Below the pieces are notes generated by a model. The model had not been told where the DNA came from, did no database searches, and saw only the letters and a list, made by a program, of their open reading frames with translations. From the IMG/VR virus record IMGVR_UViG_3300003322_000883, positions 1 through 47,247 of that record: a stretch of DNA of 47,247 nucleotides; one strand, written 5' to 3'. Shown here piece by piece: positions 15,179 through 39,866 of this stretch (its first letter is position 1; the number at the start of each line of letters is the position of its first letter). The translations under genes and the position numbers were made by a program. This DNA comes from a virus.

Positions 15179-15194
15179 TTTAGCACATGCTAAA
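15179..15194 (-). promoter_or_regulatory. Operator/promoter palindrome TTTAGCA-CA-TGCTAAA (copy a)
   Basis: Perfect 7+2+7 palindrome, 33 nt upstream of ATG 15146. On the - strand it reads TGCTAAATT, which is TGn plus a -10-like TAAATT. The conserved downstream 12-mer CTTTACTGAATC is shared with copy c. Confidence 0.6.
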
Positions 15195-21742: not shown

Positions 21743-21758
21743 TTTAGCATCTGCTAAA
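21743..21758 (-). promoter_or_regulatory. Operator/promoter palindrome TTTAGCA-TC-TGCTAAA (copy b)
   Basis: Perfect palindrome arms, 43 nt upstream of GTG 21700. The - strand reads TGCTAAAGT (extended -10-like). It overlaps the TAG stop of the upstream gene. Confidence 0.55.
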
Positions 21759-23716: not shown

Positions 23717-23732
23717 TTTAGCACGTGCTAAA
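23717..23732 (-). promoter_or_regulatory. Operator/promoter palindrome TTTAGCA-CG-TGCTAAA (copy c, OL/PL-like)
   Basis: Perfect 16-bp palindrome between the repressor-like gene and the first leftward early gene. The - strand reads TGCTAAAGT. Downstream CTTTACCGAATC matches copy a at identical spacing. Confidence 0.6.
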
Positions 23733-23778: not shown

Positions 23779-24273
23779 TCAGTTCCCGCCCAGGAGCTTG
23801 ACTAGGCGCTGCACGTACGGCTGGTCGAGCTTGCTGGTGAGCTGCTGGTGCTCGTAGACCAGCGTCACCATCTCAGCGAACGCGTCGGCGCCTGGGTTCA
23901 CCTGGGCCTCACGCACGGCCGTCACCACGGCGCGCACGCTCTCACGCAGCTGGTTCTCGTCCGGGGGACGTACAGGCGGGCCCTGCACCTTCACCGCGGG
24001 CTTGGCCGCCGGCTTCGCAGCACCGTGGTCCTCGCTGATCCAGCCGTCGGGCAGCTGCAGCTTCTGCTCGATCTCTTCGGCCACCTTCTCGCTGATCTTG
24101 CGAGAGGGCCGAGGCCCTGCCACCTGGGACAGGAACGATCCGTTGGAGTGCCCCAGCTTGAGCGCCAGGGAGGTGGGTCCGCCGAACTGGCGGATCAGGG
24201 CCCGCAGGTTCGCGAGCCTGATTTCGTAGAGGGTGGATGTCGGCACGATGCCGGGGAGGGTAGCGAGGAGCAT
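23779..24273 (-). CDS. CI-like HTH repressor candidate (no S24 peptidase domain recognised)
   Basis: 'LANLRALIRQFGGPTSLALKLGHSNGSFLSQVAG...ISEKVAEEIEQKLQLPDGWI' is the classic phage repressor HTH plus 'GW(L/I)' ending. It is divergent from a Cro-like gene across an AT-richer 199-nt gap. Confidence 0.6.
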   Translation of the reverse strand: MLLATLPGIVPTSTLYEIRLANLRALIRQFGGPTSLALKLGHSNGSFLSQVAGPRPSRKISEKVAEEIEQKLQLPDGWISEDHGAAKPAAKPAVKVQGPPVRPPDENQLRESVRAVVTAVREAQVNPGADAFAEMVTLVYEHQQLTSKLDQPYVQRLVKLLGGN

Positions 24274-24424: not shown

Positions 24425-24442
24425 TTTAGCAACTAGTAAAGT
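24425..24442 (+). promoter_or_regulatory. Degenerate operator copy e (TTTAGCA-AC-TAGTAAA) with a -10-like TAAAGT for the rightward operon
   Basis: The left half-site is perfect and the right half matches 5/7. TAAAGT at 24437-24442 lies 30 nt upstream of the Cro-like ATG. Confidence 0.4.
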
Positions 24443-24472: not shown

Positions 24473-24814
24473 ATGCCCGACAAGCTCTCCGTCTTCAAGC
24501 TGTTCATGCAAGCGGCCACCACCGAGGAGCAGAAGCTCCTCGCACACCGCGTGGGCACGAGTCACAGCTACCTCTACCACATTGCCGGCGGCTTCCGTGA
24601 GCCCCGGCCCGAGCTCGCTGCGGCGCTCGAGCGCGAGACCGCGGCCATGCACAAGGCCAGCAAGGGGCGCCTGCCCAAGGTGTACCGCACCGACCTCGTG
24701 AAGGCGTGCGCGCAGTGCTCCTTCGCGCAGAAGTGCCTGGGCGCCGCCGCGGTGCGCGCGGACTTCCCGGTGGTAACCGCCGCGGACGTGGCGGGCGAGG
24801 AGAGCGAGGGGTGA
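24473..24814 (+). CDS. Cro/YdaS-like small HTH regulator
   Basis: 113 aa: 'EEQKLLAHRVGTSHSYLYHIAGGFREPRPELAAALERET'. First gene of the rightward early operon. Confidence 0.5.
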   Translation: MPDKLSVFKLFMQAATTEEQKLLAHRVGTSHSYLYHIAGGFREPRPELAAALERETAAMHKASKGRLPKVYRTDLVKACAQCSFAQKCLGAAAVRADFPVVTAADVAGEESEG

Positions 24815-25992: not shown

Positions 25993-27974
25993 CAGCAGTG
26001 ACCGACATCACCCCCATCGCCCATATCACGTGCCCCAGCGCCCTGCGCGACCTGCCAGGGTGGGTCATCTGGCGCTTCGAGCCGAACGGGGACAAGAAAC
26101 CCCGAAAGGTGCCGTTCTACACGAACGGTGGCCGGCGCCACGGTGACCACGGCTCAAGGGAAGACCGGGCCCAGCTCACCACCTTCGACGCAGCGCGCGC
26201 CGCGGCCGCCCGGCGCAAGTTCGACGGCATCGGCCTGGCCCTGCTGCCCGAGTTCAACCTGGTGGCTCTCGACTTCGACGACTGCATCGCCCAGGGCCGC
26301 ATCCACCCCGAGGTCCTCGAGCTCCTCTCCGACACCTACGCCGAGCGGTCTCCGTCGGGCAACGGCATCCGCGCCTTCTTCCAGGGGCAGCTCGGCAACC
26401 GCAAGTCGCACAAGGCGAAGGGGTTCGAGTACGGCGTCGAAACCTTCAGCACCAACGGCTTCGTCACCTTCACCGGCCAGGTGCTCGACATCGTGGAGCT
26501 CATGGGCAACATCGACACGGTGGCGCCCATCAACACGGAGGTCACGGACCTCATGCGCCGGCGCTTCAAGCGCGAGCTGGAGGCCCAGGCGCAGGGCGTG
26601 CAGAACCTGGACGTGCTCGGCCTCACGAGCCACGACATCGGTCGCTGCCTCACGGCCTTGCCGCCCGACCTCGACTACGACACGTGGCTCATGGTCGGCA
26701 TGGCCATCCACCACGAGACCAGTGGCACGGGCTTCGACATGTGGGACACCTGGAGCCAGGCCTCGTCCAAGTACAGCACGCGTGAGTACAACCTCGAGCG
26801 CTGGAACAGCTTCGGCAAGTCCGCCTCAGGCCCGACCGTCACCGCACGGTCCCTGGTGCACCTGGCCAACGAACACGGCGCGGGCTTCCAGACCAACGGC
26901 CCGGCCAGTGCCGAGGAGTTCGACGAGGTGGCCCAGGAGGTCGCTCAGGCGCAGGAGGGCGCACCGGCCAAGCCCAACCGCTTCACGCCGCTCAGCCTGC
27001 TCGACTTCACCAGCCAGCCAGCGCCCGAGTGGATCATCAAGGGCGTGCTGCCGAAGGCGGCGCTGGTGGTGCTCTACGGCGAGTCGGGCAGCGGCAAGTC
27101 CTTCGTGGCGTTGGACATGGCCATGGCCATCGCCCGGGGCATCGCGTGGCGCGATCGTCGCGTGTGCCAGGGTAGGGTGGTCTACATTGCCGCCGAGGGC
27201 GCTGGGGGCTTTCGCAACCGCTGCGTGGCCTACCTCAACCAGCACTGCCCCGACGGGTTCGACATCCCGCTTGAGATCATCCCCGACGCGCCGAACCTCT
27301 TGATGAAGGACGAGGCGCTGCAGGTCGCCCGCGGCATCGGCAAGGCCGACGTGGTGGTGGTCGACACCTTCGCCCAGGTGACCCCCGGCGGCAACGAGAA
27401 CGCGGGCGAGGACGTCGGCAAGGCGCTGGCCCACTGCAAGGGAATCCACCGTGCCACGGGCGCTGTGGTGCTGCTGGTGCACCACTCAGGCAAGGATGCC
27501 AGCAAGGGCGCGCGGGGCTGGTCAGGCCTGCGTGCAGCGGCCGATGCCGAGCTCGAGGTGTCCAAGAGCCCAGGCGGGCGGATGCTGCGCACCACCAAGC
27601 AGAAGGATGGAGCGGACGACCTCGCCTGGGGCTTCGGCCTGGACGAGGTGAGCATCGGCATGGACAGCGACGGCGAGGTCATGACCAGCATGGTGGTGGT
27701 CGAGAAGGAGCTGCCCACGGCCAGGGTGCTGAAGCCGATGGGGGCGGTTGAAACGCTGGTCAACGCCGTGATCCAGGAGATGGCCAAGGCGCAGACCTCG
27801 GGCATCGAGGTTGCGGCCATCGTCACCGAGGCGGTCAAGAAGCTGGACCCTCCCGAGGACGGTAAGCGAGACACCCGGAAGCAACGAGTGCGTCGGGCCA
27901 TCGAGACGCTTTGCAGTCCCTCTGACGACACGCCGTATTGGCTGCACGACGACGGGACCATCGAGATCATTTGA
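25989..27974 (+). CDS. Primase-polymerase (Prim-Pol) fused to PriCT and RecA/DnaB-like helicase domains
   Basis: ATGA overlap with the methyltransferase gene. Motifs: 'LVALDFDDC', 'SPSGNGIRAFF', 'YDTWLMVGMAIHHET...WDTWSQASSKY...RWNSF', Walker A 'GESGSGKS', Walker B 'VVVVDTF'. Confidence 0.85.
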   Translation: MTAVTDITPIAHITCPSALRDLPGWVIWRFEPNGDKKPRKVPFYTNGGRRHGDHGSREDRAQLTTFDAARAAAARRKFDGIGLALLPEFNLVALDFDDCIAQGRIHPEVLELLSDTYAERSPSGNGIRAFFQGQLGNRKSHKAKGFEYGVETFSTNGFVTFTGQVLDIVELMGNIDTVAPINTEVTDLMRRRFKRELEAQAQGVQNLDVLGLTSHDIGRCLTALPPDLDYDTWLMVGMAIHHETSGTGFDMWDTWSQASSKYSTREYNLERWNSFGKSASGPTVTARSLVHLANEHGAGFQTNGPASAEEFDEVAQEVAQAQEGAPAKPNRFTPLSLLDFTSQPAPEWIIKGVLPKAALVVLYGESGSGKSFVALDMAMAIARGIAWRDRRVCQGRVVYIAAEGAGGFRNRCVAYLNQHCPDGFDIPLEIIPDAPNLLMKDEALQVARGIGKADVVVVDTFAQVTPGGNENAGEDVGKALAHCKGIHRATGAVVLLVHHSGKDASKGARGWSGLRAAADAELEVSKSPGGRMLRTTKQKDGADDLAWGFGLDEVSIGMDSDGEVMTSMVVVEKELPTARVLKPMGAVETLVNAVIQEMAKAQTSGIEVAAIVTEAVKKLDPPEDGKRDTRKQRVRRAIETLCSPSDDTPYWLHDDGTIEII

Positions 27975-27985
27975 AGGATGAAGGC

Positions 27986-28564
27986 ATGGAACGCATAACC
28001 GTAGAAACGCACCGGCCCAGTCGTCAGCGCCTGGCCGGCGTGTATGGGCTCGTTGACCCCAATGAGCCGGAGCGCGTGCGCTACGTTGGGTCGTCGCAGC
28101 ATCTGGTGAAACGTCTGTACGACCACGCTTCGGGCTACGTCCCAAGGGCGCTGGACGGCCCGAAGCGCGCGTGGCTGGCGGAGCTGAAGCGTGCCGGGCG
28201 CCGGCCGGAGATGGTCGTGCTGCAGCGCTTGGCTAGCGGAAAGGCCACCCCGGAAACTCACGCCGCGGAGCGGGAGTGGATCAGGAAGCTCAACGCGATC
28301 GGGCAGGCTGATTTGAATGCGGTGCTTCGATCCGAACGCTATGAAGTGCTTTTGTTGCGTGAGCAAGTAAAAAACTGCATGCAAGAAATTGCGCGCTTAG
28401 AAGCTGAACTGGCTGCAACGCGCAACGACTGTGCAACGTTGCATCAAAAGTTGCGTTGCGCAGCTCCTCAACCTGCAACGCAACGCAACGGGGGTATAGA
28501 ACCCGTTGCGCGTGTTGCAGGGGAGCGGGGGTCATCGGGCGTCAATCTGCAAGATTTCGCATGA
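27986..28564 (+). CDS. GIY-YIG nuclease (homing-endonuclease-like)
   Basis: ATG 27986 follows AAGGATGAAGG. Motif: 'GVYGLVDPNEPERVRYVGSSQHLVKRLYDH'. GC3 is markedly lower than in the backbone. Whether the C-terminal 50 aa are really coding is uncertain, because they overlap the repeat array. Confidence 0.65.
   Translation: MERITVETHRPSRQRLAGVYGLVDPNEPERVRYVGSSQHLVKRLYDHASGYVPRALDGPKRAWLAELKRAGRRPEMVVLQRLASGKATPETHAAEREWIRKLNAIGQADLNAVLRSERYEVLLLREQVKNCMQEIARLEAELAATRNDCATLHQKLRCAAPQPATQRNGGIEPVARVAGERGSSGVNLQDFA
28414..28520. repeat. Dense GCAACG/CGTTGC direct and inverted repeat array with three nested hairpins
   Basis: GCAACG at 28415, 28422, 28433, 28475, 28480 and 28485. CGTTGC/GTTGC at 28437, 28450-28460, 28504 and 28514. 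Palindrome TGCAACGTTGCA at 28432-28443. Hairpins: GTTGCGTTGCGCAG/CTGCAACGCAACGCAAC and CAACGGG/CCCGTTG. Confidence 0.8.
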
Positions 28565-28577
28565 AAGGGCCTTCGGC

Positions 28578-28913
28578 ATGGTGAGCATGAACCAACGCAA
28601 GCGCCTGGTCGCCGTCAACGCGAAGGGCTACCGCCTGGGCGAAGACCACCACCGCGCCAAGCTGACCAACCACGACATCGACCTGATCCTGGACCTGATG
28701 GAGGCACGGGACCTGCTGCTGGTCGAGTACCAGAAGGTGGGCCTGGGCAAGCACGCGATCCAGATGGCCCTGAGCAAGGCCCAGCTGAGCGAGCGCTGGA
28801 TCGCCGCCAAGTTCGAGATCAGTCGTCGCACGGTGCGCGACATCTACAGCGGCAAGATTCGCGGCCAGGCCGCCGACGACTGGCGGGCGGATAAGCGCCG
28901 ACAGCCCCTTTAG
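28578..28913 (+). CDS. Small HTH DNA-binding protein (same 'KLT..D...I' + HTH architecture as the C-terminus of the 15822..16340 HNH); candidate late regulator
   Basis: ATG 28578. Motifs: 'GEDHHRAKLTNHDIDLILDL' and 'LSERWIAAKFEISRRTVRDIYSGK'. It is the last early-right gene, directly before terS. Confidence 0.55.
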   Translation: MVSMNQRKRLVAVNAKGYRLGEDHHRAKLTNHDIDLILDLMEARDLLLVEYQKVGLGKHAIQMALSKAQLSERWIAAKFEISRRTVRDIYSGKIRGQAADDWRADKRRQPL

Positions 28914-28916
28914 CAT
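28885..28916 (+). promoter_or_regulatory. Late-promoter-like element 2 (GGGCGGATAAG-N15-TAGCAT)
   Basis: The 11-mer lies at 28885-28895 and TAGCAT at 28911-28916, which is 7 nt before the terS ATG at 28923. Confidence 0.5.
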
Positions 28917-28922
28917 TTGGTC

Positions 28923-29531
28923 ATGGCGAACCATCACTTCCCCTGGCACGAGGCTTTCCTGGCGGCGCTGCGCAGCATGCCGGTGGTGCAGCACGCCTGC
29001 GACGCCGTGGGCATCCAACGCAGCACCGCCTACCGGGCGCGCGAGGCCGACGAGGCGTTCGCCCAGGCCTGGGATGACGCCATGGAGGCGGGCATCGACC
29101 GTGCCGAGCAGGAAGCCCTTCGCCGTGGCATGGTGGGCTTCGAGGAGCCTGTGGTGTACCAGGGCCAGCTCACGCCTGTGTGGAAGCGCGACGATGAGGG
29201 CAACGTGGTGATGCGCAAACGCGAGCGCACGGTGCACGACCCGGTGAAGGGCGAGCAGACGTTCACCGAGCAGGTGCCTGTGCAGCAGACCGATGAGCAG
29301 GGCCGACCGGTGTGGCTCACCGTGCGCAAGCACAGCGACGCGCTGCTGGCGCTGGTCCTCAAGGCCCGGCGCAAGGCCTACAGCACCGAGCGCACCGAGC
29401 ACGTCAGCCCCGACGGCAGCATGAGCCCGCTGGCCAACGAGACCGACCGCAGCGCTCGAGCTGCGCAGCTGTTGGCTGCAGCGCGTGAGCGCCGCGAGGC
29501 CCAGGGCGACGACTTCTCCGACTTGGCATGA
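28923..29531 (+). CDS. terS: Terminase small subunit
   Basis: N-terminal HTH 'VVQHACDAVGIQRSTAYRAREADEAF' and 'SDALLALVLKARR'. ATGA overlap with terL. Confidence 0.7.
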   Translation: MANHHFPWHEAFLAALRSMPVVQHACDAVGIQRSTAYRAREADEAFAQAWDDAMEAGIDRAEQEALRRGMVGFEEPVVYQGQLTPVWKRDDEGNVVMRKRERTVHDPVKGEQTFTEQVPVQQTDEQGRPVWLTVRKHSDALLALVLKARRKAYSTERTEHVSPDGSMSPLANETDRSARAAQLLAAARERREAQGDDFSDLA

Positions 29532-31192
29532 CCCCCAAGGAGATCGCCGAGCTCCTGCCCTACATGACCGAGGAGGAGCGCAAGGAGTTCGACGCGCTCA
29601 TCGCTCGCGACATCACCGACGTGCCCTGGCGTGCACTGCCTGGGCCGCAGCTGATGGCCTACGAGAGCGAGGCCGACATCGTGGGCTACGGTGGCGCGGC
29701 CGGGGGCGGCAAGACGGACCTGATCGCAGGCCTGTGCCTCACCAAGCACGAGCGCGCGCTCGTCGTGCGTCGCGAGAAGGCGCAGACCGAGGGCGTGATC
29801 CAGCGCCTGGGCGAAATCCTTGGTGACACCGACGGCTTCAACTCGCAGAAGAGCATCTGGCGCATCCCCGGCGGCGCGCTCACCGAGTTCGCCGGCCTGG
29901 ACAACCCCGGCGACGAGCGCCGGTGGCAGGGCCGCCCGCACGACCTCAAGGCGTTCGACGAGGTGACCGAGCAGCGCGAGCACCAGGTGCGCTTCGTGAT
30001 GGGCTGGAACCGCTCGAACAAGGCGCACCTCAAGGGCAAGGTGCTCATGACGTTCAACCCGCCGACCACGAGCGAGGGGCGATGGGTGATCGACTTCTTC
30101 GGGCCGTGGATCGACAAGAAGCATGCGCTCTACCCCACGCCGCCGGGCACGCTGCGCTGGTGCGCGATGCTGCCCACCGAGAACGGCACGAGCCGCGACG
30201 TGTGGGTGGAGGATGGGCGCAAGTTCGTGCTGAAGGACGGCAAGCCCTGCTACGAGTTCGACCCCGCCGACTACGGTGACGAGGACATCATCCAGCCCAA
30301 GTCGCGCACCTTCATCCCCGCGCGCTTGACCGACAACCCCTACTACATGGCGAGCGGGTACATGAGCACTCTGCAGGCACTCCCTGAGCCTCTGCGGTCG
30401 CAGATGCTGTACGGCGACTTCCAGGCGGGCATCGGCGACGACCCCTGGCAGGTGATCCCCACCGCATGGGTCGAGGCTGCGCAAGCCCGCTGGAAACCGC
30501 GCTCGCCACGCGGCGAGATGCTCGCCATGGGCTGCGACGTGGCGCGCGGGGGCAAGGACAACACGACCATCGCCACACGCCACAAGACCGAGACCACCGA
30601 CAAGTGGTTCGACAAGCTCGAGGCCGGCAAGACCTTCCTGCAAGGCACCGAGACACCGGACGGGCCGAAGGTGGCGGGCTACATCGTCGCTGCGCGGCGC
30701 GACGACGCGCCGGTGCTCATCGACGTGATCGGCGTGGGCGCGTCACCCTACGACGTGCTCAACGGCCTGGGCGTGCAGGTGCTGGGCATCAACGTGGCCG
30801 AGAAGGCGCAGGGCCTGGACAAGTCGGGCCGGCTGCACTTCTTCAACCTGCGCAGCGAGCTCTGGTGGCGCATGCGCGAGACGCTCGACCCAGCGAACGA
30901 CACCGGTGTCGCGCTGCCACCGGACCCCGAGCTCACCAAGGAGCTGTGCATGCCGAAGTGGGAACTGTCGGGCATGACGGTGAAGGTCGAGAGCCGCGAG
31001 GACATCGTGAAGCGCCTGGGCCGATCGCCTGACCGCGCGACGGCCTACGTGCTGGCCAACATCAGCGTGCCCAAGCTGAAGGCGCTGCAGGCCGCGCACT
31101 CCCGCATGGAGGTCGTGAACTACGACCCCATGGCGCACGCACGCCAGGACTACGGCTCCTCGCTCGACTACGACCCGATGGGCCGCCTGTGA
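29528..31192 (+). CDS. terL: Terminase large subunit
   Basis: 'GYGGAAGGGKTD' (Walker A), 'LKAFDEVTEQ' (Walker B), C-terminal nuclease 'AMGCDVARGGKDNT'. Confidence 0.9.
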   Translation: MTPKEIAELLPYMTEEERKEFDALIARDITDVPWRALPGPQLMAYESEADIVGYGGAAGGGKTDLIAGLCLTKHERALVVRREKAQTEGVIQRLGEILGDTDGFNSQKSIWRIPGGALTEFAGLDNPGDERRWQGRPHDLKAFDEVTEQREHQVRFVMGWNRSNKAHLKGKVLMTFNPPTTSEGRWVIDFFGPWIDKKHALYPTPPGTLRWCAMLPTENGTSRDVWVEDGRKFVLKDGKPCYEFDPADYGDEDIIQPKSRTFIPARLTDNPYYMASGYMSTLQALPEPLRSQMLYGDFQAGIGDDPWQVIPTAWVEAAQARWKPRSPRGEMLAMGCDVARGGKDNTTIATRHKTETTDKWFDKLEAGKTFLQGTETPDGPKVAGYIVAARRDDAPVLIDVIGVGASPYDVLNGLGVQVLGINVAEKAQGLDKSGRLHFFNLRSELWWRMRETLDPANDTGVALPPDPELTKELCMPKWELSGMTVKVESREDIVKRLGRSPDRATAYVLANISVPKLKALQAAHSRMEVVNYDPMAHARQDYGSSLDYDPMGRL

Positions 31193-31196
31193 GGGC

Positions 31197-31228
31197 GGGC
31201 GGATAAGCCGGAGTCGGCCTTTTAGCCT
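31197..31228 (+). promoter_or_regulatory. Late-promoter-like element 3 (GGGCGGATAAG-N15-TAGCCT)
   Basis: The 11-mer lies at 31197-31207 and TAGCCT at 31223-31228, with AGGAG plus GTG 31267 downstream. Confidence 0.5.
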
Positions 31229-31266
31229 TTGCTCTGCGCGTCAGTATCGGCGCGAGGAGCGACACA

Positions 31267-31458
31267 GTGTGCCTCAGCAAGCCCAACATCCCCGACCCGG
31301 TTGTGCCCCCGCCTGTGCAGGCGAGCAAGACCCCCGAGCTCAACAGCTTCAGCCGCGACCGCAAGCGCGTAACGAACGGCAGCACGTTGCTCACGAGCTC
31401 GACCGGCGTGGGCACCGGCTCGACGAACACCGGTTCCACGACGCTGCTGGGAGGCTGA
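31267..31458 (+). CDS. Small Pro-rich virion-protein candidate, T7 gp6.7-like (MC... N-terminus, ...TLLGG C-terminus)
   Basis: AGGAG lies 7 nt before GTG 31267. 'MCLSKPNIPDPVVPPP...STTLLGG' recalls the T7 gp6.7 N-terminus 'MCFSPK' (recollection). It lies upstream of the portal gene and is a paralog of the C-terminal half of 31795..32142. Confidence 0.5.
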   Translation: MCLSKPNIPDPVVPPPVQASKTPELNSFSRDRKRVTNGSTLLTSSTGVGTGSTNTGSTTLLGG

Positions 31459-31459
31459 C

Positions 31460-31792
31460 ATGGTGAACCTCAAGTCGGACCCCAAGCCCAGCAAGGAAAG
31501 CACGCTGTGCGCACCGTGCTACGAGGAGCCGGCCTACCCCTACGGCCTGCAGATCACCCTTTGCGACGAGACGCTGCGCAAGCTGTCGATGACCGACCTG
31601 CCGAAGGTGGGCACCGTCATCACCTTCACCGCGCAGGCCACCGTGACGTCGATCAGCTCCTACGAGACCGCCGACATGAACGAGCCGGGTGAGGCGGGTG
31701 AACACCAGGAGCGCACCGTCGCCCTGCAGATCACCGACATGGACATGGCGAAGCCGAGCGCCAGCGCGGCCGATCGCATGTACGGGAGCTGA
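31460..31792 (+). CDS. Hypothetical head-module protein (110 aa)
   Basis: ATG 31460 follows GGGAGG. 'PYGLQITLCDETLRKLSMTDLPKVGTVITFTAQATV'. High GC3. Confidence 0.6.
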   Translation: MVNLKSDPKPSKESTLCAPCYEEPAYPYGLQITLCDETLRKLSMTDLPKVGTVITFTAQATVTSISSYETADMNEPGEAGEHQERTVALQITDMDMAKPSASAADRMYGS

Positions 31793-31794
31793 CC

Positions 31795-32142
31795 ATGTGC
31801 GTCGGCAAGACCGTCGACAACGCGCTGGGCAAGGCCGCGCAGCCCTTCGCGCCCGGCAAGCTCAAGAACTACGTGCCAACCCTGGGCGAGTCCGCGGACC
31901 CGCACTACTTCCGCACGAACGAAAAGGCCGATGCGCGCCACGAGGAGCTCGGTGTCGGTCAGCCCGACATCCCGGACCCGGTGACGCCGCCTGACATGCA
32001 AGAGGCGAAGGCGCCCGACTCCACGCTGCTCACGCGCAACCGCAAGGCCTACGGCAAGAACGCAGGCGGCACGCTGCTCACCGGCCCCTCGGGCGTGAGC
32101 CGCGTGTCCACCGCATTCGGCAGCACGCTGCTCGGGGGCTGA
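31795..32142 (+). CDS. Paralog of 31267..31458 with an N-terminal extension (MC..., IPDPVTPP, ...STLLGG)
   Basis: 'QPDIPDPVTPPDMQEAKAPDSTLLTRNRKAYGKNAGGTLLTGPSGVSRVSTAFGSTLLGG' aligns with the 63-aa protein along its whole length. Confidence 0.6.
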   Translation: MCVGKTVDNALGKAAQPFAPGKLKNYVPTLGESADPHYFRTNEKADARHEELGVGQPDIPDPVTPPDMQEAKAPDSTLLTRNRKAYGKNAGGTLLTGPSGVSRVSTAFGSTLLGG

Positions 32143-32144
32143 GC

Positions 32145-33812
32145 ATGGTCGACCAGCTCTCCCCGAAGCAGCTCAAGCTGCTGCGCAAGCAAAGCCTGTT
32201 CAACGAGCGCAGCAGCTGGATCATGCAGTGGCAGGACATCAGCCGCTACCAGCAGCCGCAGATGGGCCGGTTCCTGATGAGCGACCGCAACAAGGGCGGC
32301 AGTCGCTACAACAACATCTACGACAACACGGCGCTGTTCGCATCGCGCACGCTGGCCGCCGGGATGATGTCGGGCATGACGAGCCCGGCGCGCCCGTGGT
32401 TCCGTCTCACGCTCACCGACACCGACCTGCGCGAGTTCGGCCCGGTCAAGACCTGGCTGCACCGCACCGGTGTGTTGCTGCGCGAGGTGTTCGCTCGCTC
32501 GAACACCTACCGCGCGCTGCACGCCGGTTACCAGGAGCTGGGCCTCTTCGGCACCTGGGCCGATGCGGTGCTGCCCGACTTCCAGAACGTGATGCACCAC
32601 TACCCGATGACCATCGGGGAGTACGCCATCGGCACCGACCATCGTGGCGCGGCCAACACACTGGCGCGCGAGTACGAGATGACGGTGGGCGCCATCGCAG
32701 CGCAGTGGGGCACCTCGACCATGAGCGCAACGGTCAAGAACGCGTTCGACCGCAACCAGCTGGACCAGTGGGTGCCCATCATCCACGTCGTCGAGCCGAA
32801 CAAGAACCGCGATCCGCGCAAGCGCGACAACCACAACATGGCCTACAGCTCCTGCTACTTCGAGGCAGGACAGACGGGCGACGGCTTCCTGAGCGAGTCG
32901 GGGTTCAAGCGCTTCAACGTGCTGGCGCCGCGCTGGATGGTGACCGGCCAGGACATCTACGGCACGAGCCCGGGCATGGAAGCGCTCGGTGACGTGAAGC
33001 AGCTGCAGCACCAGCAGCTGCGCAAGTCGCAGGGCATCGACTACCAGACCAACCCGCCCATCCAGGTGCCCACGGCGTACAAGGACGCTGCGAAGAACCG
33101 CCTGCCCGGCGGTGTGATGTACGTCGACACGAACGCGCCGACCGGCGGCGTGCGCACGGCCTACGAGGTGCCGCTGCGCCTGGACTACCTGCTGGCCGAC
33201 ATCCAGGACGTGCGCGAGCGCATCCGCAGTGCCTACTACGCCGACCTCTTCCTCATGCTGGCCAACATGCCCGACAACGGGAAGATGACGGCCACCGAGG
33301 TTGCCGAGCGCCACGAGGAGAAGCTGCTCATGCTGGGCCCGGTGCTCGAGCGCCTGCACAACGAGCTGCTGTCCCCGTTGATTGACATGACGTTCGACTA
33401 CTGCGCCGAGGCCGGCATCCTGCCGCCCACGCCGCCGGAGCTGGGGGGCATCGACCTCAACATCGAGTTCGTGAGCACACTCGCGCAAGCGCAGCGCGCC
33501 GTGGCCGCGCAGGGCATGGACCGCCTGCTGGGCACGATCACCTCGCTGGTTCAGGTGTTCCCCGGCGCGCCCGACAAGATCGACATCGACCAGGCGATCG
33601 ACGACTTCGGCGAGGCCTACGGCGTCAACCCCGAGATCATCCGTTCGGACGACCAGGTGGCGGAGCTGCGCGAAGCCAACGCGCAGAAGCAGCAGCTCGC
33701 ACAGCAGGCCGGCGCCGCGCAGCCCATGGCCGACGCCGTGAAGACGGTGAGCGAGATCGACGCGGACAACCTCCAGAACGTGATGAGCAACTTCTCCGGC
33801 TACACGCAGTAG
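32145..33812 (+). CDS. Portal (head-tail connector, T7 gp8-like)
   Basis: 555 aa, downstream of terL and upstream of the scaffold and capsid genes. Motifs: 'WIMQWQDISRYQQP' and 'YDNTALFASRTLAAGMMSGMTSPARPWFRL'. Confidence 0.8.
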   Translation: MVDQLSPKQLKLLRKQSLFNERSSWIMQWQDISRYQQPQMGRFLMSDRNKGGSRYNNIYDNTALFASRTLAAGMMSGMTSPARPWFRLTLTDTDLREFGPVKTWLHRTGVLLREVFARSNTYRALHAGYQELGLFGTWADAVLPDFQNVMHHYPMTIGEYAIGTDHRGAANTLAREYEMTVGAIAAQWGTSTMSATVKNAFDRNQLDQWVPIIHVVEPNKNRDPRKRDNHNMAYSSCYFEAGQTGDGFLSESGFKRFNVLAPRWMVTGQDIYGTSPGMEALGDVKQLQHQQLRKSQGIDYQTNPPIQVPTAYKDAAKNRLPGGVMYVDTNAPTGGVRTAYEVPLRLDYLLADIQDVRERIRSAYYADLFLMLANMPDNGKMTATEVAERHEEKLLMLGPVLERLHNELLSPLIDMTFDYCAEAGILPPTPPELGGIDLNIEFVSTLAQAQRAVAAQGMDRLLGTITSLVQVFPGAPDKIDIDQAIDDFGEAYGVNPEIIRSDDQVAELREANAQKQQLAQQAGAAQPMADAVKTVSEIDADNLQNVMSNFSGYTQ

Positions 33813-33820
33813 CCGGGTGC

Positions 33821-33852
33821 GGGCGTTTAAGCGGTGTAGCAATCGCAAAAAT
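33821..33852 (+). promoter_or_regulatory. Late-promoter-like element 4 (GGGCGTTTAAG-N15-AAAAAT)
   Basis: The 11-mer variant lies at 33821-33831 and AAAAAT at 33847-33852, with the same spacing as the other copies. Confidence 0.4.
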
Positions 33853-33858
33853 GGCCGC

Positions 33859-34173
33859 GTGAATCAAACCACGACCGATCCGACGGACTTGCACCAGCAA
33901 CGGCTCGACGCCGAAGCCCGAGTGGCAGCGGAAGAGCTGGAGCGCAAGCAAGAGGCCGAGGACTGGAAGTGGCTGATGGCACACAAGGCGGGGCGCCGCC
34001 TGACGTGGAAGCTGTTGGCGGATTGCGGAGTGTTCCGCACGCCGTTCAACCACTCCGGGTCGATCACCGCCTTCAACTGCGGACGGCATGCCGTCGGGCT
34101 GGAGCTGCTGGGGTCGGTCATGGAACACGTACCGGACGCCCTCCACGTGATGCAGAAGGAGCACACCAAATGA
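33859..34173 (+). CDS. Conserved small head-module protein (Bbp19-like by recollection); start uncertain
   Basis: 'DWKWLMAHKAGRRLTWKLLADCGVFRTPF...AFNCGRHAVGLELL'. Possible starts are GTG 33859, the track start 33817, or ATG 33975. Confidence 0.5.
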   Translation: MNQTTTDPTDLHQQRLDAEARVAAEELERKQEAEDWKWLMAHKAGRRLTWKLLADCGVFRTPFNHSGSITAFNCGRHAVGLELLGSVMEHVPDALHVMQKEHTK

Positions 34174-34778
34174 GCGACGGCGCAAACCCCGCAGACACCA
34201 GCGCAGGGGCGGGCCCACAAGGTGGTGCTGATGGCGGAAACGCCGGAGGCGAGGGCACCCAGCCGAACACCCAGGGGCAACCCAACGGTGGGACGCAACC
34301 GAACACGCAGCAGGCCACGCAAGAGGTCGTCTACGAGTTCAAGACGCCCGATGGCATCGAGCTCGACAAGGCATCTGTCGACGAGTTCAAGGCCATCGCC
34401 AAGGACCTGAAGTTGCCCGCGGACGCGGCGCAGAAGGTGGTCGACCTCGCTGTCAAGCGCGAGGCCGCGAACCGGGAAGCGCACAAGACCATGGTCAAGG
34501 GATGGGCCGAGGAAGTGCAGAACGACAAGGAGCTGGGCGGCGACAAGCTGGACCAGACCCTGGCCACCTGCGCGAAGGCGATCAACCTGGGGCCGCCCGA
34601 GCTGAAGGAACTGCTCAACAACTCCGGGCTGGGCAACCACCCCGCAGTGGTGAAGTGGGCTTTCGCAATCGGCAAAGCACTGAGCGAGGACCGGTTCGTG
34701 GCCGCCCAAGGCGGCCAGACGAAGCCGCAGGGCGGCGCGGAAAACCGGCTTTACGACAAAACGCCCGCAACCGCGTAA
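34170..34778 (+). CDS. Scaffolding protein
   Basis: ATGA overlap with the upstream gene. It has a Gly/Gln-rich N-terminus and a helical charged body, and lies immediately before the major capsid gene. Confidence 0.6.
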   Translation: MSDGANPADTSAGAGPQGGADGGNAGGEGTQPNTQGQPNGGTQPNTQQATQEVVYEFKTPDGIELDKASVDEFKAIAKDLKLPADAAQKVVDLAVKREAANREAHKTMVKGWAEEVQNDKELGGDKLDQTLATCAKAINLGPPELKELLNNSGLGNHPAVVKWAFAIGKALSEDRFVAAQGGQTKPQGGAENRLYDKTPATA

Positions 34779-34790
34779 AGGACACGCACC

Positions 34791-35816
34791 ATGGCAACTC
34801 TCGGTTTGAACGGCAAGGTCACCCTGATGGACATCGCGCAAGCGATGGACCCGCAGGGCAAGATCGCCGACGTCGCGGAACTGCTCACGCAGTCCAATGA
34901 AATCCTGCTGGATATGCCCTGGTTCGAGGGCAACATGCCCACCGGCCACAAGGCCAGCGTGCGCACCGGCATCCCGTCGGCGGTGTGGCGCCAGTTCTAC
35001 CAAGGCGTGCCGCCGGTCAAGACCCAGCGCGCCCAGGTGCTCGACACCTGCGCCATCCTCGAGAACCGCACCGAGGTGGACAAGGACGAGGCCGACCTCA
35101 ACGGCAACGCCGCCGCCTTCCGCCTGAGCGAGGCCGCCGGCATCGTCGAGGGCATGAACCAGCAGATGGCCGCGGCGCTGTTCTACAGCGACACGAGCGC
35201 CAACCCTGAACGCATCCACGGCCTGGCCCCGCGCTTCTCTTCGCTGTCGACCGCCACCGCGGCCACCGCTGCGAACGTGATCAACGCGGGCGGCTCCGGC
35301 GCCGACAACTCCAGCATCTGGCTGGTGGGCTGGGGCAAGCTCAGCGCGCACGGCATCTACCCGAAGGGTTCGATGGCCGGCCTGCAGCACCATGACCTGG
35401 GCGTGATCGACGCCTTCGACTCGAACAACCAGCGCTTCCGCGCCTACGCGGACTGGTGGCAGTGGAAGTGCGGCCTGCACGTCAAGGACTGGCGCGGCAT
35501 CGTGCGCATCGCCAATATCGACATCTCCAACCTCGTCACCGAGACCGGCGCCGCGGACCTGGTGAAGCTGATGATCCGTGCGATGGCGCGCGTTCCGGCG
35601 GCGCTGCGCGGCAGCAACTTCGTGTTCTACGCGAACCGCACCGTCAAGGAAATGCTCAGCATCCAGGCCCTGAACAAGAGCCAGAACGCGCTGAGCATCG
35701 TGGAGGCGGCCCGCCAGTTCGGCGGCGTCACGGTCTCCATGCCCGAGCTGCGTTTCTTCGGCTACCCCGTGCGCACTGTCGACCAGCTGCTCACGACCGA
35801 AGCCGTGGTCAGCTGA
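34791..35816 (+). CDS. Major capsid protein (HK97-fold type)
   Basis: 341 aa. The position and size fit a major capsid protein. Motifs: 'LLDMPWFEGNMPTGHK', 'NSSIWLVGWG', 'VKDWRGIVRIANID'. Confidence 0.8.
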   Translation: MATLGLNGKVTLMDIAQAMDPQGKIADVAELLTQSNEILLDMPWFEGNMPTGHKASVRTGIPSAVWRQFYQGVPPVKTQRAQVLDTCAILENRTEVDKDEADLNGNAAAFRLSEAAGIVEGMNQQMAAALFYSDTSANPERIHGLAPRFSSLSTATAATAANVINAGGSGADNSSIWLVGWGKLSAHGIYPKGSMAGLQHHDLGVIDAFDSNNQRFRAYADWWQWKCGLHVKDWRGIVRIANIDISNLVTETGAADLVKLMIRAMARVPAALRGSNFVFYANRTVKEMLSIQALNKSQNALSIVEAARQFGGVTVSMPELRFFGYPVRTVDQLLTTEAVVS

Positions 35817-35834
35817 TCCCAAGGAGCCACAGAC

Positions 35835-36317
35835 ATGATTCTCGACCTGCAATCCATGTTCAGCGGCACGGTGGCCGCGGACGGCACCAAGACCGCCCAA
35901 GGTCCGGTGACGGCCACGGCCATCTCGACGAACGTCATCGACCTGCGCCAGCCCAACGGTGCGCCGACGGTCGTCGACAACGGCATCCTGGGCATCGATA
36001 TGTACCTGGTGGTGCAGACCATCCAGGCGTTCAACAACCTCACGTCGCTCACGATCACGCTCGAGTCGGACAGCACCGCCAACCTGGCCACCGCGCCGGT
36101 GGTGCACTTCAGCTCCGGCGCGATCCTGCTGGCCGCGCTCGTGGCCAACACCGTGCAGGTGCGCACGCTGCTGCCTTCGGGCAGCTACAAGCGCTACCTC
36201 GGCTTGCGCTACACGGTGACCGGCACCGCGCCGACCACCGGCACGGTCCTGGCCTACCTGACGCCGGACGCGCAACGCAACATCGCCTACCCGGGCGCCT
36301 ACACCCTCGACGTCTGA
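35835..36317 (+). CDS. Capsid decoration/cement protein (BPP-1 Bbp16-like jellyroll by recollection)
   Basis: AAGGAG lies upstream. 160 aa, directly after the capsid gene. Motif: 'YKRYLGLRYTVTGTAPTTGTVLAYL'. Confidence 0.5.
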   Translation: MILDLQSMFSGTVAADGTKTAQGPVTATAISTNVIDLRQPNGAPTVVDNGILGIDMYLVVQTIQAFNNLTSLTITLESDSTANLATAPVVHFSSGAILLAALVANTVQVRTLLPSGSYKRYLGLRYTVTGTAPTTGTVLAYLTPDAQRNIAYPGAYTLDV

Positions 36318-36333
36318 CCAGGAGACTGACCCC

Positions 36334-36594
36334 ATGCAAGTCATCGCAACCGCGCGCGGCTACGACAACCACAGCATTCGTGAGCCGGGCGAGCAGTTCG
36401 AGATGAACATCGATCCCGCCCTGTTCGAACTGCCCGAAGGCAAGGGCCGCCCCACCTGGCTGATGCCGGTGGGCGGCTACCCGAAGCCCAAGGCCGCGAA
36501 GCCGGGCAAGCCCGAGAAGGCCCCGGCGACGCTCGCCGAGGCCGCTCAGGAACAAGCGGGCTCGGTGGTGCAAGGGGCTCAAGACCTGGCCTGA
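36334..36594 (+). CDS. Hypothetical protein (86 aa) with a Lys/Pro-rich segment
   Basis: AGGAG lies upstream of ATG 36334. It is the last gene before a strong terminator. Confidence 0.55.
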   Translation: MQVIATARGYDNHSIREPGEQFEMNIDPALFELPEGKGRPTWLMPVGGYPKPKAAKPGKPEKAPATLAEAAQEQAGSVVQGAQDLA

Positions 36595-36615
36595 GCCCAG
36601 GCCGCACGCAACAAG

Positions 36616-36642
36616 AACCGGGGCGCTTGACGCCCCGGTTTT
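36616..36642 (+). terminator. Rho-independent terminator after the capsid module
   Basis: AACCGGGGCG-CTTGA-CGCCCCGGTT forms a perfect 10-bp stem running into TTTT. Confidence 0.8.
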
Positions 36643-36656
36643 CCTAGGAGCCCCAC

Positions 36657-36941
36657 ATGTTCATCACCTGCCCCACGACCGTCGGCCCGAACGCGCCGGA
36701 GCACAACGAGTACCAGGCGAACCCGATCACGCCGAACGATTCCGTGGACCTCGCGCGAGGCCCCGATGGCGGTGACTGCCGCGCCATCCAGGTGACCGGT
36801 GCGGGCAACGTGGCGGTCCAGCTGAGCGGTGGCGGCACGGCCACCTTGACCGGCCTGGCCGCCGGCCAGCGCGTGGTTGTCGGTGCGTCGCGCATCCTGG
36901 CGACGGGCACCACGGCCACCGGCATTTCCGCGCTCTACTGA
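36657..36941 (+). CDS. Small beta-rich virion-protein candidate (paralog A)
   Basis: AGGAG lies upstream. 'ITPNDS...RAIQVTGAGNVAVQLSGGGTATLTGLAAGQ...ATGTTATGISALY'. Confidence 0.55.
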   Translation: MFITCPTTVGPNAPEHNEYQANPITPNDSVDLARGPDGGDCRAIQVTGAGNVAVQLSGGGTATLTGLAAGQRVVVGASRILATGTTATGISALY

Positions 36942-36951
36942 GGAGCCGGCC

Positions 36952-37221
36952 ATGCCCCAGATTCCGTACAGCTTCGAGACGGTCCCGGCCAAGGACCTGA
37001 TCGCCATCACGCCGACCGACGGCGCCGGCAACCAGTGGGCGTTCCCCATCCGCGGCATCTACGTCGGTGGCGCGGGCAACATCTCGGTGCGCACGCTCGC
37101 CGGCAACGACGTGCTGCTCACTGGTGTGGTAGCGGGCACGATCCTGCAGATCGCCGCGCTGCGCGTCAACGCCACCACCGGCGGCGCCACCACGGCGACC
37201 AACCTCGTAGGTTTGGTGTGA
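36952..37221 (+). CDS. Small beta-rich virion-protein candidate (paralog B)
   Basis: GAGGAG lies upstream of ATG 36952. 'ITPTDG...RGIYVGGAGNISVRTLAGNDVLLTGVVAGT...GGATTATNLVGLV' aligns with paralog A. Confidence 0.55.
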   Translation: MPQIPYSFETVPAKDLIAITPTDGAGNQWAFPIRGIYVGGAGNISVRTLAGNDVLLTGVVAGTILQIAALRVNATTGGATTATNLVGLV

Positions 37222-37685
37222 CCGACGAGCTCTACCAGCCCGGCAACGGCCTGGACATCGGCGGCCAACGCACGCCGACGCTCGGGCCGAACCTTGCGCC
37301 CTTCGGGGACTTCGCATCGGGCGTCGGTGGCTTGCTCGCCTTCCTGGGTGCGACGGTTGCGAACGTGCTCAACGAACTGTTGATCACGCTCGCGGGCGGC
37401 TCGGGTGGTGCGTACTACGACTTCCCGGTGCAGGCCGGGCGCTGGGTGCAAATCTCGGTCGACGCGCGCCGCGTGACGGCCGCGCAGGCCGCCTTGCGCG
37501 TGTACGACGGCGCGAGCTTCGGCACGCAGCTGGCGGCGCAGACCACCACGTCGACCACCAACGTGCCGCTGGCAGTCCAGGTGGTGGCGCCTAGCGGTGT
37601 GCTCCGTGTCTACCTCGAGGCCAGCGGATCGGTCCTCAACACCGCCGCGTTCGACAACCTCGTGGTCTGCGAAATCCAGGGGTGA
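37218..37685 (+). CDS. Hypothetical tail-module protein (155 aa, possible jellyroll/CBM-like)
   Basis: GTG 37218 overlaps the upstream stop (GTGA). 'RWVQISVDARRVTAAQAALRVYDG...GVLRVYLEASG'. Confidence 0.5.
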   Translation: MTDELYQPGNGLDIGGQRTPTLGPNLAPFGDFASGVGGLLAFLGATVANVLNELLITLAGGSGGAYYDFPVQAGRWVQISVDARRVTAAQAALRVYDGASFGTQLAAQTTTSTTNVPLAVQVVAPSGVLRVYLEASGSVLNTAAFDNLVVCEIQG

Positions 37686-37873: not shown

Positions 37874-37874
37874 C

Positions 37875-38295: not shown

Positions 38296-38305
38296 GGAGC
38301 ACACC

Positions 38306-39850: not shown

Positions 39851-39866
39851 GAGATGAGGCCATGAC

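Follow-up and report, generated by a model that had tools for sequence, protein, structure and literature searches.

How would a phage whose structural genes follow the order of T7 time its late transcription if it carries no RNA polymerase of its own? The question is raised by IMG/VR virus record IMGVR_UViG_3300003322_000883, which we analysed over its whole length of 47,247 nucleotides and refer to here as the window. Its late block contains repeated copies of a bipartite element, an 11-bp box followed after 15 bp by a -10-like hexamer. In the literature searched we found no description of late-gene timing in such polymerase-less T7-ordered phages. A preliminary description of this DNA had reported five copies of the element and had read them as late promoters in which the box takes the place of the -35 hexamer. 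We have followed the element through the window and through related phages. The window contains six credible copies, which are very probably promoters, and the comparison with relatives suggests that they are served by host RNA polymerase together with a DNA-binding factor encoded by the phage.

A bipartite element recurs in the late block

The box GGGCGGATAAG occurs exactly three times in the window (copies 1 to 3, Table 1). Two variants, GGGCGTTTAAG and GGCGCTTAAG, the latter with a preceding G (that is, GGGCGCTTAAG), mark copies 4 and 5, and all five copies are on the plus strand. In each of them a hexamer of the form nAnnnT begins 26 nt past the first G of the box. Scanning both strands with GGGCGNNTAAG returned five matches in the window, all on the plus strand and confined to the late block, where 0.19 were expected; none of 100 shuffled sequences reached five. 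When two freely placed mismatches to GGGCGGATAAG were allowed, 15 matches were obtained against 11.1 expected, no excess over chance, and therefore the signal resides in a specific conserved core and not in overall similarity. The composite of core and hexamer, GGGCGNNTA-N18-A-NNN-T, gave seven matches against 0.06 expected. All of them are on the plus strand of the late block, and the 20-kb early region contains none. The copies listed in the preliminary description, their strand and their fixed geometry are therefore correct, but one further copy had been overlooked.

We regard six of the seven composite matches as credible promoter copies. Copy 6, at 44027, is a probable member of the set: its box, GGGCGTTTATG, has a T at position 10, which relatives also accept. 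It lies inside the gene at 43759-44298, about 154 nt upstream of the start of the next gene (~44213). The match at 4572, inside the giant virion protein gene, is doubtful; it departs from the consensus at box positions 7 and 10 and is probably a chance occurrence or a very weak site.

The copies had also been described as lying at gene junctions, and the context is as stated for all five. Copy 1 is directly 3' of the giant virion protein gene and 5' of the tail fibre gene, and the box of copy 2 falls within the 3' end of the gene for a small helix-turn-helix (HTH) protein that precedes terS. Copies 3 and 4 follow the stop codons of terL and of the portal gene, and copy 5 precedes the tail tubular A gene. 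Copy 5, however, is not strictly intergenic, as the open reading frame (ORF) at 39867-41198 runs through this junction without a stop codon while the coding signal shifts frame. Copies 1 and 5 would drive the tail fibre and tail tubular A genes, copy 3 a conserved ORF whose product begins Met-Cys (31267-31458) plus the genes downstream of it, and copy 4 the Bbp19-like, protease/scaffold and capsid genes.

Two observations concern the surroundings of these copies. The ORF that runs through the copy 5 junction is rich in Ala, Gly and Thr and overlaps tail tubular A by about 370 nt, and its third-position GC signal changes frame at ~40780; the two genes may truly overlap, the frame may shift at this site, or the assembly may be in error. 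Just past the predicted start of copy 3, the sequence GCGTCAGTATCGGCGC (31238..31253, plus strand) is followed by GAGGAG and GTG 31267. It has the potential to form a 5-bp hairpin (GCGUC-AGUAUC-GGCGC, loop AGUAUC) and is kept in at least eight phages, the window and L028, L030, L031, L192, L193, L196 and L200, despite diverged flanks, so that it could be an mRNA-stabilising or a protein-binding site. As an anchor for finding the post-terL leader in distant relatives the hairpin was of no use, being restricted to a close subclade.

The element is conserved at the same junctions in related phages

Close relatives were defined as the DNA around terL homologues of 68-73% identity, 174.5 kb in total. 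In these the element is present at the same junctions and with the same spacing, and the 15-bp spacer has fully diverged. In L027 the box GGGCGCATAAG is followed at N15 by TAGGAT, TACATT and TACATT, in L031 the box GGGCGGATAAG by TAAGGT, TAGCAT and TAAAGT, and in L193 the box GGGCGCTTAA(A/C) by TAAGGT and TAGCAT. The variants of the window that read GTTTAAG and GCTTAAG are within the range seen at the same junctions in relatives.

To examine the geometry without preselecting for the hexamer, we collected from the 174.5 kb all sequences that fit the loose core GGCG-N-W-TA-H-N, 31 of them plus-strand and 6 minus-strand matches. Of the 31 plus-strand matches, 20 have TAnnnT, whose background frequency is 0.0012, at offset 26, and one has it at offset 25. 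It was found at no other offset between 18 and 39 in these 31, and in none of the six minus-strand matches. The information profile of 21 aligned instances consists of two blocks, GGGCG-S-W-T-A-A-S and T-A-n-n-n-T, with a spacer of about zero information between them. Within the hexamer T1 is present in 19 of the 21 instances and A2 and T6 in all, and A is enriched at the would-be +1 position.

A search of viral contigs with the family of the HTH protein showed that dozens of distinct phages share one module. It consists of the HTH gene, the box at or over its stop codon, N15 (rarely 14 or 16), nAnnnT, 6-7 nt and the ATG of terS. The reading frame of the box varies among phages, its TAA often being the stop codon of the HTH gene, and in the window it encodes ..ADK..; it is therefore the DNA, and not the encoded protein, that is under conservation. 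When a looser form of the box was combined with nAnnnT at +26, 92 plus-strand and 11 minus-strand matches were obtained. Each genome carries two to four copies of its own box variant, located before terS, after terL and before the Bbp19-like gene. Examples are GGGCACATA in L213, GTGCGGATAA in L223 and GTGCGCTTA in L231, with three copies each, and GTGCGCTTAGG in L233 and CGTCGAATAA in L234, with two copies each.

Two cultured phages extend the pattern. Caulobacter phage SR18 has four copies of the box GGTGCGCATGAT, i.e. GGTGCGCAT(G/A)A(T/G)-N15-hexamer, on its late strand. One stands in front of terS, with 7 nt to the ATG, one follows terL, and the other two precede the Bbp19-like gene and gp039; the genes downstream of the four sites begin at 2231, 43202, 38749 and 22652. 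In Bordetella phage BPP-1 an exact 13-mer, GGGTGCCCGTGCC, which falls outside our box regular expression, occurs four times, always on the late strand. With the hexamer at N15 in every case, these sites lie before terS (AAAACT, 6 nt to the ATG), before bbp24, which follows terL (TACTGT, 7 nt), before bbp19 (TAGAGT, 6 nt) and before the tail fibre gene bbp9 (TAGCCT, with a longer leader). The four boxes are on the minus strand of BPP-1, at about 26294, 24132, 20747 and 6185. The junctions and the geometry in BPP-1 are like those of the window, but the box sequence is wholly different. A further layout was noted in Limnohabitans phage DC33 (PQ492659.1), a 39-kb podovirus-like genome with terL, portal and HTH homologues, whose placement in the Inoviridae by GenBank looks like a taxonomy error. 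In DC33 and related loci the place of the box is taken by the 11-mer (C/A)GAGC(A/G)CAAAC, some 26 nt ahead of the hexamer, and the hexamers of this type (AAAGAT, AAAAAT or AAAGGT) end 5 nt before the called ATG of terS.

Broader searches were less productive. The exact composite pattern gave 17 singleton matches in IMG/VR, about the number expected by chance, and a single contig had a second core match. A terL scan of one metagenome added only L112 and missed the closest relatives. None of the portal-based relatives in GTDB genomes (41-62% identity) has the canonical box, which had suggested a motif private to one genome; the closer relatives overturned this view. No prior description of the boxes or of bbp27, the BPP-1 member of the HTH family, was found in the literature searched, which excluded the 2004 BPP-1 genome paper.

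These data also bear on whether the element could be something other than a promoter, namely an RNA signal (for processing, translational coupling or structure) or a site at which the DNA is packaged or recombined. The copies do lie at gene junctions, often just past stop codons, the HTH gene adjoins the terminase genes, and the box of L195 forms a perfect inverted repeat with its flank. However, the copies share no RNA fold (z-scores of -2.8 to +1.2, with differing structures) and match no Rfam family, the spacer has neither information nor covariation, and a pac or cos site would be present once and not in four to six dispersed copies. The rigid 15 bp to nAnnnT, followed 6-7 nt on by a start codon, is a signature of promoters. 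We consider a non-promoter role very improbable indeed.

The box occupies the place of a -35 element

In the relatives the hexamer has the canonical T1, A2 and T6 of a -10 element, and copies 4 and 5 of the window keep A2 and T6. TTGACA-like -35 sequences are absent: at 17-bp spacing the copies read CGGATA, CGCATA or CGTTTA, and a consensus scan found no sigma-70 promoter in the late region (28000-47247). The box, at about -38 to -28 and at a rigid N15 from the hexamer, matches the layout of a phage box that replaces the -35. Geometry, recurrence at junctions and the missing sigma-70 consensus thus agree, at the level of sequence, with the late promoters proposed in the preliminary description.

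The premise of a T7-ordered genome lacking an RNA polymerase was upheld as well. Pfam scans of about 30 window proteins revealed neither an RNA polymerase nor a sigma gene, and the Jessavirus relatives have no RNA polymerase (PMC11053796, a paper in which promoters are not mentioned). Since the -10 is of the housekeeping type, no -35 is present and no phage polymerase or sigma was recognised, the host polymerase would need help at the box.

Several known classes were considered and set aside. A T7-type polymerase promoter does not fit a spacer of zero information, nor the lack of a polymerase domain in the scanned proteins and in the polymerase-less relatives (PMC11053796). A sigma-54 promoter would have GG-N10-GC (TGGCAC-N5-TTGCW) at -24/-12; copies 1 and 3 do have TTGCT after the hexamer, but no GG ten bases upstream. 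An extracytoplasmic function (ECF) sigma promoter would have a -35 of the GGAAC/TGAAC type and CGT or GTC in the downstream block, which instead reads TAnnnT, and the scanned proteins include no sigma gene. No MotA or AsiA domain was detected in the window proteins scanned, some small ORFs having been left out, and the box is unrelated in sequence. The Mor domain is not among the 25 listed of the 46 Pfam families matched by the HTH alignment, and the box is asymmetric. The ten positions upstream of the box (about -48 to -39; position -55 is beyond the alignment) hold no information that would indicate an Ogr-type dyad, and the candidate HTH protein has no Cys4 motif, unlike a zinc-finger activator.

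It could be argued that these are weak -35-less promoters read by host sigma-70 alone, the box having another role or serving as an upstream element in its own right, for example by its DNA shape or by binding a host nucleoid protein. The -10 is indeed of the sigma-70 type, and the tie between a phage protein and the box is itself drawn from sequence. Against this, the box resembles neither TTGACA nor an A/T-rich UP element, restriction to late genes implies temporal control, and an element read by the host should not change wholly between related phages and yet stay uniform within each genome. We judge this explanation highly unlikely.

A single alternative sigma factor, either a host ECF or other sigma or an unrecognised phage sigma, might instead read box and hexamer together. 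A rigid bipartite layout is what one sigma contacting two elements would give, some members of the HTH family faintly match the Sigma70_r4, Sigma70_r4_2 and ECF models, and many early ORFs have no recognisable domain. The downstream element is nevertheless housekeeping TAnnnT and not ECF CGT/GTC, and neither a region 2 nor a full sigma was found in the scanned proteins, the HTH protein being of 80-110 amino acids and without region 2. A host sigma is further disfavoured because the boxes GGGCGGATAAG, GGGTGCCCGTGCC and GCGTACATAGG differ sharply among phages of related hosts, while phages of alphaproteobacterial and likely betaproteobacterial hosts have similar boxes. An alternative sigma is therefore unlikely. 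The preliminary description had left the choice between an activator and an alternative sigma undecided; the need for an additional reader is supported, with an activator the likelier of the two.

The box could also be the loading site of a Q-like antiterminator or other polymerase modifier, acting at promoters that fire constitutively. The late promoter of lambdoid phages contains the Q-binding element and is immediately preceded by the gene for the regulator. The order here, a regulator gene and then the first late promoter, is the same, and one HTH family member weakly matches a Q-like PHROG and the Q Pfam model. This similarity, though, is at the level of a generic HTH. Instead of a single late promoter and terminator there are six dispersed copies, intrinsic terminators are not in excess in the late region, and none is on the plus strand. 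Constitutive firing is also unlikely because the late promoters have no -35. We rejected lambdoid Q control as a class, and the Q-like explanation appears decidedly unlikely.

A small HTH protein is the candidate reader

If an activator reads the box, two observations make a phage origin likely: the box is uniform within a genome and differs between genomes, and boxes are alike across host classes (a Caulobacter phage and phages of likely Betaproteobacteria hosts) yet unlike among phages of related hosts. The only conserved candidate DNA-binding protein is P0149, of 111 amino acids, whose gene closes the rightward early operon and is followed by terS. Its family has 543 uncharacterised members, among them BPP-1 bbp27 and SR18 gp003c. 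A member is present in 102 of 114 terL-anchored relatives, bbp27 included, and in the relatives examined individually the gene is directly upstream of terS. Loci with an HTH member and a match to the box regular expression numbered 25, and those with an HTH member but no match 77, as the boxes diverge beyond the expression; junction-by-junction inspection was used in place of a 2x2 test. The sequence class of the recognition helix follows the box: ..SRRTVRD.. pairs with GCG-N-W-TAA, ..SKGAIAKI.. (the BPP-1 group) with GTGCCCGTGCC, and ..FYTVCEI.. with GCGTACATAGG. On this evidence the identification of a P0149-type protein as the reader stands midway between doubtful and probable.

The family offers few further clues to function. 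Its members have 80-110 amino acids and no part resembling sigma region 2. Pfam, NCBIfam and PHROGs gave only generic HTH matches, below curated cut-offs, and PDB sequence matches were likewise generic. Of 10 members, 5 had a match to GerE (best E 2.5e-6) and 4 to Sigma70_r4_2 (best E 1.3e-6), but HTH_23 and HTH_7 outscored both, and the protein of the window is beneath every cut-off. A match to the PHROG annotated "late transcriptional activator" was limited to one repeat of one family member. The predicted structure of P0149 has a mean pLDDT (predicted local distance difference test) of 79.8, and a Foldseek search of this model against the PDB gave no match with E<1.

Relative to all homologues examined, P0149 has a 25-residue insertion at residues ~42-66 (..EARDLLLVEYQKVGLGKHAIQMALSKAQ..), predicted to extend the long helix ahead of the HTH. 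Three proteins from short metagenomic contigs, P0168, P0174 and P0165, are 61-70% identical to P0149 over about three quarters of its length and may share the insertion. RefSeq labels bbp27 (26337-26573 in NC_005357.1) an "endonuclease"; it is a 78-residue HTH protein without a nuclease domain.

The terS transcript is probably leaderless

The distance from hexamer to start codon differs among the copies (Table 1). At terS the ATG is 6-7 nt past the hexamer and no Shine-Dalgarno sequence precedes it, so the mRNA is probably leaderless. In 60 of 126 distinct junctions the called ATG of terS comes 6-7 nt after the end of an nAnnnT hexamer, start-calling being noisy, and the N-terminus M-x-H-H-x-F-P-W is kept across the aligned relatives. 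Leaderless starts had been proposed for copies 2 and 4. The first is strongly supported by the position of the ATG and the kept N-terminus, and the second is weaker. At the copy 4 junction of relatives the ATG is 16-18 nt downstream of the hexamer, whereas the window has ACG at that position, which leaves GTG 33859 as the sole in-frame start. A leaderless mRNA at copy 4 is possible, with less certainty than at terS.

The annotated start of BPP-1 terS (bbp26 in NC_005357.1), at 26318, is upstream of the arrangement of box, -10 and ATG. Translation probably begins instead at the ATG near 26255.

Operator-like sequences overlap part of the late set

A 16-bp palindrome, TTTAGCA-NN-TGCTAAA, is perfect at three sites in the window, each before minus-strand early genes (Table 1). 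Because these sites overlap the -10 of promoters that have a sigma-70-like -35, they resemble repressor-controlled early promoters, and the palindromes are probably repressor operators. A degenerate operator and a further half-site at 24280 lie in the divergent control region of a CI-like gene (23779-24273, minus strand) and a Cro-like gene (24473-24814, plus strand). The half-site TTTAGC is, we presume, akin to the IncP KorA/KorB operators, whose spacing differs; our argument makes no use of this likeness.

With up to three mismatches, TTTAGCANNTGCTAAA has eight sites in the window against 0.18 expected, and three of them overlap late copies. At copies 1 to 3 the hexamer lies within TAGCMTTTG(C/G)T, which corresponds to the left half and spacer of the palindrome; the site at copy 4 is about 10 bp further upstream than those at copies 1 and 2. 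A near-perfect operator, in coding sequence 20 nt past the -10 of copy 6, suggests that this internal promoter is under repressor control. The same operator is kept in the relatives L029, L031, L194, L195 and L196, with perfect copies in L029, L031 and L194, and in L030, L193 and L192 the post-terL promoter overlaps an operator with about 1-3 mismatches by manual count. The repressor that binds the early operators would in this way also shut copies 1, 2, 4 and 6 directly. For and against, we find the case evenly balanced that the protein bound at the early operators represses part of the late promoter set.

A model for late transcription

The sequences themselves show the element with its geometry, its conservation and its bias towards one strand and towards gene junctions, and they show that each lineage has its own box; promoter activity, start sites, the identity of the factor and repression are what we infer from them. 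In the proposed mechanism, host sigma-70 holoenzyme would recognise the TAnnnT-type -10, with the asymmetric 11-bp box GGGCG-S-W-TAA-S in place of a -35. A phage-encoded DNA-binding factor would read the box and recruit or stabilise the polymerase, either in a class II-like manner or as a replacement of -35 contacts. Early transcription would produce the HTH activator, which would then turn on terS and five further internal promoters serving the packaging, head and tail block. The terS transcript would start at or next to its ATG, whereas other copies would give leaders of 25-38 nt with AGGAG. Taken as a whole, this explanation, activator-type late promoters used by host polymerase, is the one that we moderately favour.

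A number of points weigh against it. The -10 hexamers of copies 4 (AAAAAT) and 5 (GATCAT) are weak, with only A2 and T6 kept, and several of the SR18 hexamers do not have T at position 6. A leaderless mRNA with a GTG start, as at copy 4, would be unusual. The candidate reader is a generic three-helix HTH protein whose co-variation with the box is seen at the level of clades, where common descent and physical linkage confound it, and an HTH gene of this size beside terS could instead serve DNA packaging. Finally, early ORFs with no recognisable domain are many, and an unrecognised factor may be among them.

More tentatively, and leaning slightly to doubt, we propose a hitherto undescribed late-transcription system common to a large, mostly uncultured family of temperate podoviruses. 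A monomeric protein of the bbp27 family, of 80-110 amino acids, would read a lineage-specific box of 11-13 bp placed 15 bp above the -10 and so replace region-4/-35 recognition at four to six late promoters; box and protein would co-evolve, several mRNAs (terS, bbp24, bbp19) would be leaderless, and a prophage repressor would gate some of the promoters. In its boldest version the bbp27-type protein would be a detachable substitute for region 4, docked on the polymerase without an AsiA-like partner. The family would take in BPP-1 (Rauchvirus) and the Caulobacter Jessaviruses, and probably the Limnohabitans phage as well. Many Vibrio podoviruses also encode the HTH protein.

The analysis yields a promoter map of four to six sites per genome together with a rule for prediction (box, N15, nAnnnT), and a named candidate for a regulator at present labelled "endonuclease" or "hypothetical". 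It also yields likely corrections of gene starts, such as that of BPP-1 terS from 26318 to near 26255, and sequence evidence that leaderless translation of the terminase is widespread in the family. BPP-1 is the model phage for diversity-generating retroelements, and metagenomes from freshwater, soil and sludge abound in its relatives. The interest of the system lies in its breadth over a large family, its presence in BPP-1, the conserved leaderless terminase mRNA and the cultured systems at hand, BPP-1 in Bordetella bronchiseptica and SR18 or JessA in Caulobacter CB15. A box and its protein, specific to one lineage, could be used as a compact orthogonal expression switch in high-GC Proteobacteria.

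Genome context

The first 25 bases of the window recur exactly at 47223-47247, and hence the assembly is circular (or overlaps at its termini) and measures 47,222 bp, with a G+C content of 66.8%. Nucleotide identity to BPP-1 and to the Caulobacter SR18/JessA group is ~66-71% and is confined to terL and portal, which makes the genome, by sequence, a distant relative of both. With moderate confidence we take the source to be a temperate BPP-1-like podovirus with T7-ordered structural genes that uses host RNA polymerase. Gene functions were assigned by PHROGs and Pfam scans of the window proteins. Among the early genes are those for integrase, SNF2 helicase, family-A DNA polymerase, SSB, methyltransferase and primase/helicase. 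Pfam recognised no domain in several of the small early ORFs. Functions found in the PHROGs scans of late genes were limited to structure, packaging and replication.

Table 1. Coordinates of the late elements, operators and genes in the window
Feature	Coordinates	Strand	Sequence and context
Copy 1	5884..5915	+	box GGGCGGATAAG 5884-5894; 15-bp spacer; -10 TAGCAT 5910-5915; ATG 5942, 26 nt past hexamer end; Shine-Dalgarno AGGAG
Copy 2	28885..28916	+	box GGGCGGATAAG 28885-28895; -10 TAGCAT 28911-28916; before terS; ATG 28923, 6 nt past hexamer end; no Shine-Dalgarno
Copy 3	31197..31228	+	box GGGCGGATAAG; -10 TAGCCT 31223-31228; 4 nt past terL stop; GTG 31267, 38 nt past hexamer end; Shine-Dalgarno GAGGAG
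Copy 4	33821..33852	+	box GGGCGTTTAAG; -10 AAAAAT 33847-33852; 8 nt past portal stop; GTG 33859, 6 nt past hexamer end; no Shine-Dalgarno
Copy 5	40768..40799	+	box GGGCGCTTAAG; -10 GATCAT 40794-40799; before tail tubular A; ATG 40825, 25 nt past hexamer end; Shine-Dalgarno AGGAG
Copy 6 (probable)	44027..44058	+	box GGGCGTTTATG; -10 TACATT 44053-44058 after N15
Degenerate match (doubtful)	4572-4603	+	GGGCGCCTACG-N15-GACGCT
Early operator (probable)	15179..15194		perfect palindrome TTTAGCACATGCTAAA; overlaps minus-strand -10 TAAATT before minus-strand early gene
Early operator (probable)	21743..21758		TTTAGCATCTGCTAAA; minus-strand promoter TTGCCC, 17 nt, TAAAGT
Early operator (probable)	23717..23732		TTTAGCACGTGCTAAA; minus-strand promoter TTCGCA, 18 nt, TAAAGT
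Degenerate operator	24425..24440		TTTAGCAACTAGTAAA; divergent control region
Operator-like	5908-5923		CATAGCATTTGCTAAG; at copy 1
Operator-like	28909-28924		TTTAGCATTTGGTCAT; at copy 2
Operator-like	33835-33850		TGTAGCAATCGCAAAA; at copy 4
Operator-like palindrome	44078..44093	+	TTTCGCACCTGCTAAA; 1 mismatch to TTTAGCANNTGCTAAA; beside copy 6
HTH protein P0149	28578..28913	+	111 amino acids
terS	ATG 28923 to 29531	+	PHROGs/Pfam
terL	29528-31192	+	PHROGs/Pfam
Conserved 63-residue "MC.." ORF	31267-31458	+	GTG start; versions in relatives 60-75 amino acids, begin M-C
Portal	32145-33812	+	PHROGs/Pfam
Bbp19-like gene, protease/scaffold	between portal and capsid	+	PHROGs/Pfam
Capsid	34791-35816	+	PHROGs/Pfam
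Tail tubular A (gp11-like)	40825-41481	+	PHROGs/Pfam
Tail tubular B	41478-43766	+	PHROGs/Pfam
Giant virion protein gene	46818 across window ends to 5883	+	
Pectate-lyase-like tail fibre gene	5942-7987	+	PHROGs/Pfam

Some further features of the genome were noted. ORFs resembling homing endonucleases, with weak GIY-YIG, NUMOD4 and His-Me finger matches, are spread over the early region (13195-13704, 15198-15578 and 27938-28564), one of them directly upstream of the HTH gene. Tandem proline-rich repeats with a period of ~18-24 nt and PEPPPAP-like units are found at 38417-38722, inside a beta-helix protein (38306-39850) that is probably a tail spike or fibre. The giant virion protein (19-5883) has, at residues ~389-561, weak sub-threshold matches to ART-PolyVal (ADP-ribosyltransferase) and MIF/tautomerase.

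Comparison with known systems

The closest parallel in layout is provided by the middle promoters of T4, where the MotA box, (a/t)(a/t)(a/t)TGCTTtA, is used in the "sigma appropriation" by AsiA. In both systems a sigma-70 -10 is kept, an asymmetric phage box of ~9-11 bp stands in for the -35 at a fixed distance, centred near -30 to -33, and host polymerase would act with a phage-encoded reader, which for our element is a proposal. The differences are the box itself, here GGGCG-S-W-TAA-S, the lack of a MotA or AsiA domain in the scanned window proteins, and the genes served, which in T4 are the middle genes of a virulent myovirus and here the late structural genes of a temperate podovirus.

Mu and P2 each have four late promoters switched on by one small, early-made phage activator. 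The Mu C/Mor and P2/P4 Ogr/Delta systems resemble ours in being temperate and in having several dispersed late promoters without a usable -35. Mu C and Mor, however, bind as dimers to dyad sites at about -30 to -55, whereas the box here is asymmetric and at -38 to -28, and Ogr of P2 is a zinc-finger protein that recognises TGT-N12-ACA near -55. At the lambda cII promoters (PRE, PI and PaQ) the activator site likewise straddles a poor -35 and the activator comes from an early-operon gene just upstream, but the site is a TTGC-N6-TTGC direct repeat bound by a tetramer at promoters for lysogeny, compared with a single asymmetric site at morphogenesis genes in the window.

The predicted terS transcript is like that of lambda cI from PRM, which is leaderless, with its first nucleotide at the A of the start codon or adjacent to it, and has no Shine-Dalgarno sequence; it differs in that the gene is terS (in BPP-1 also bbp24 and bbp19) and that the arrangement is kept across a large phage family. 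T7-type promoters are likewise repeated, strand-specific elements at the junctions of a T7-ordered structural block. They are contiguous sequences of ~23 bp, from -17 to +6, read by a phage polymerase, and the element described here is bipartite with a free 15-bp spacer.

Judged by its layout, the element would function like the T4 MotA-box, Mu C and P2 Ogr promoters, but it is not a member of any of these classes by box, symmetry or protein. If the HTH protein is indeed the reader, it would represent a third route to the replacement of the -35, structurally distinct from MotA/AsiA and from Mor/C.

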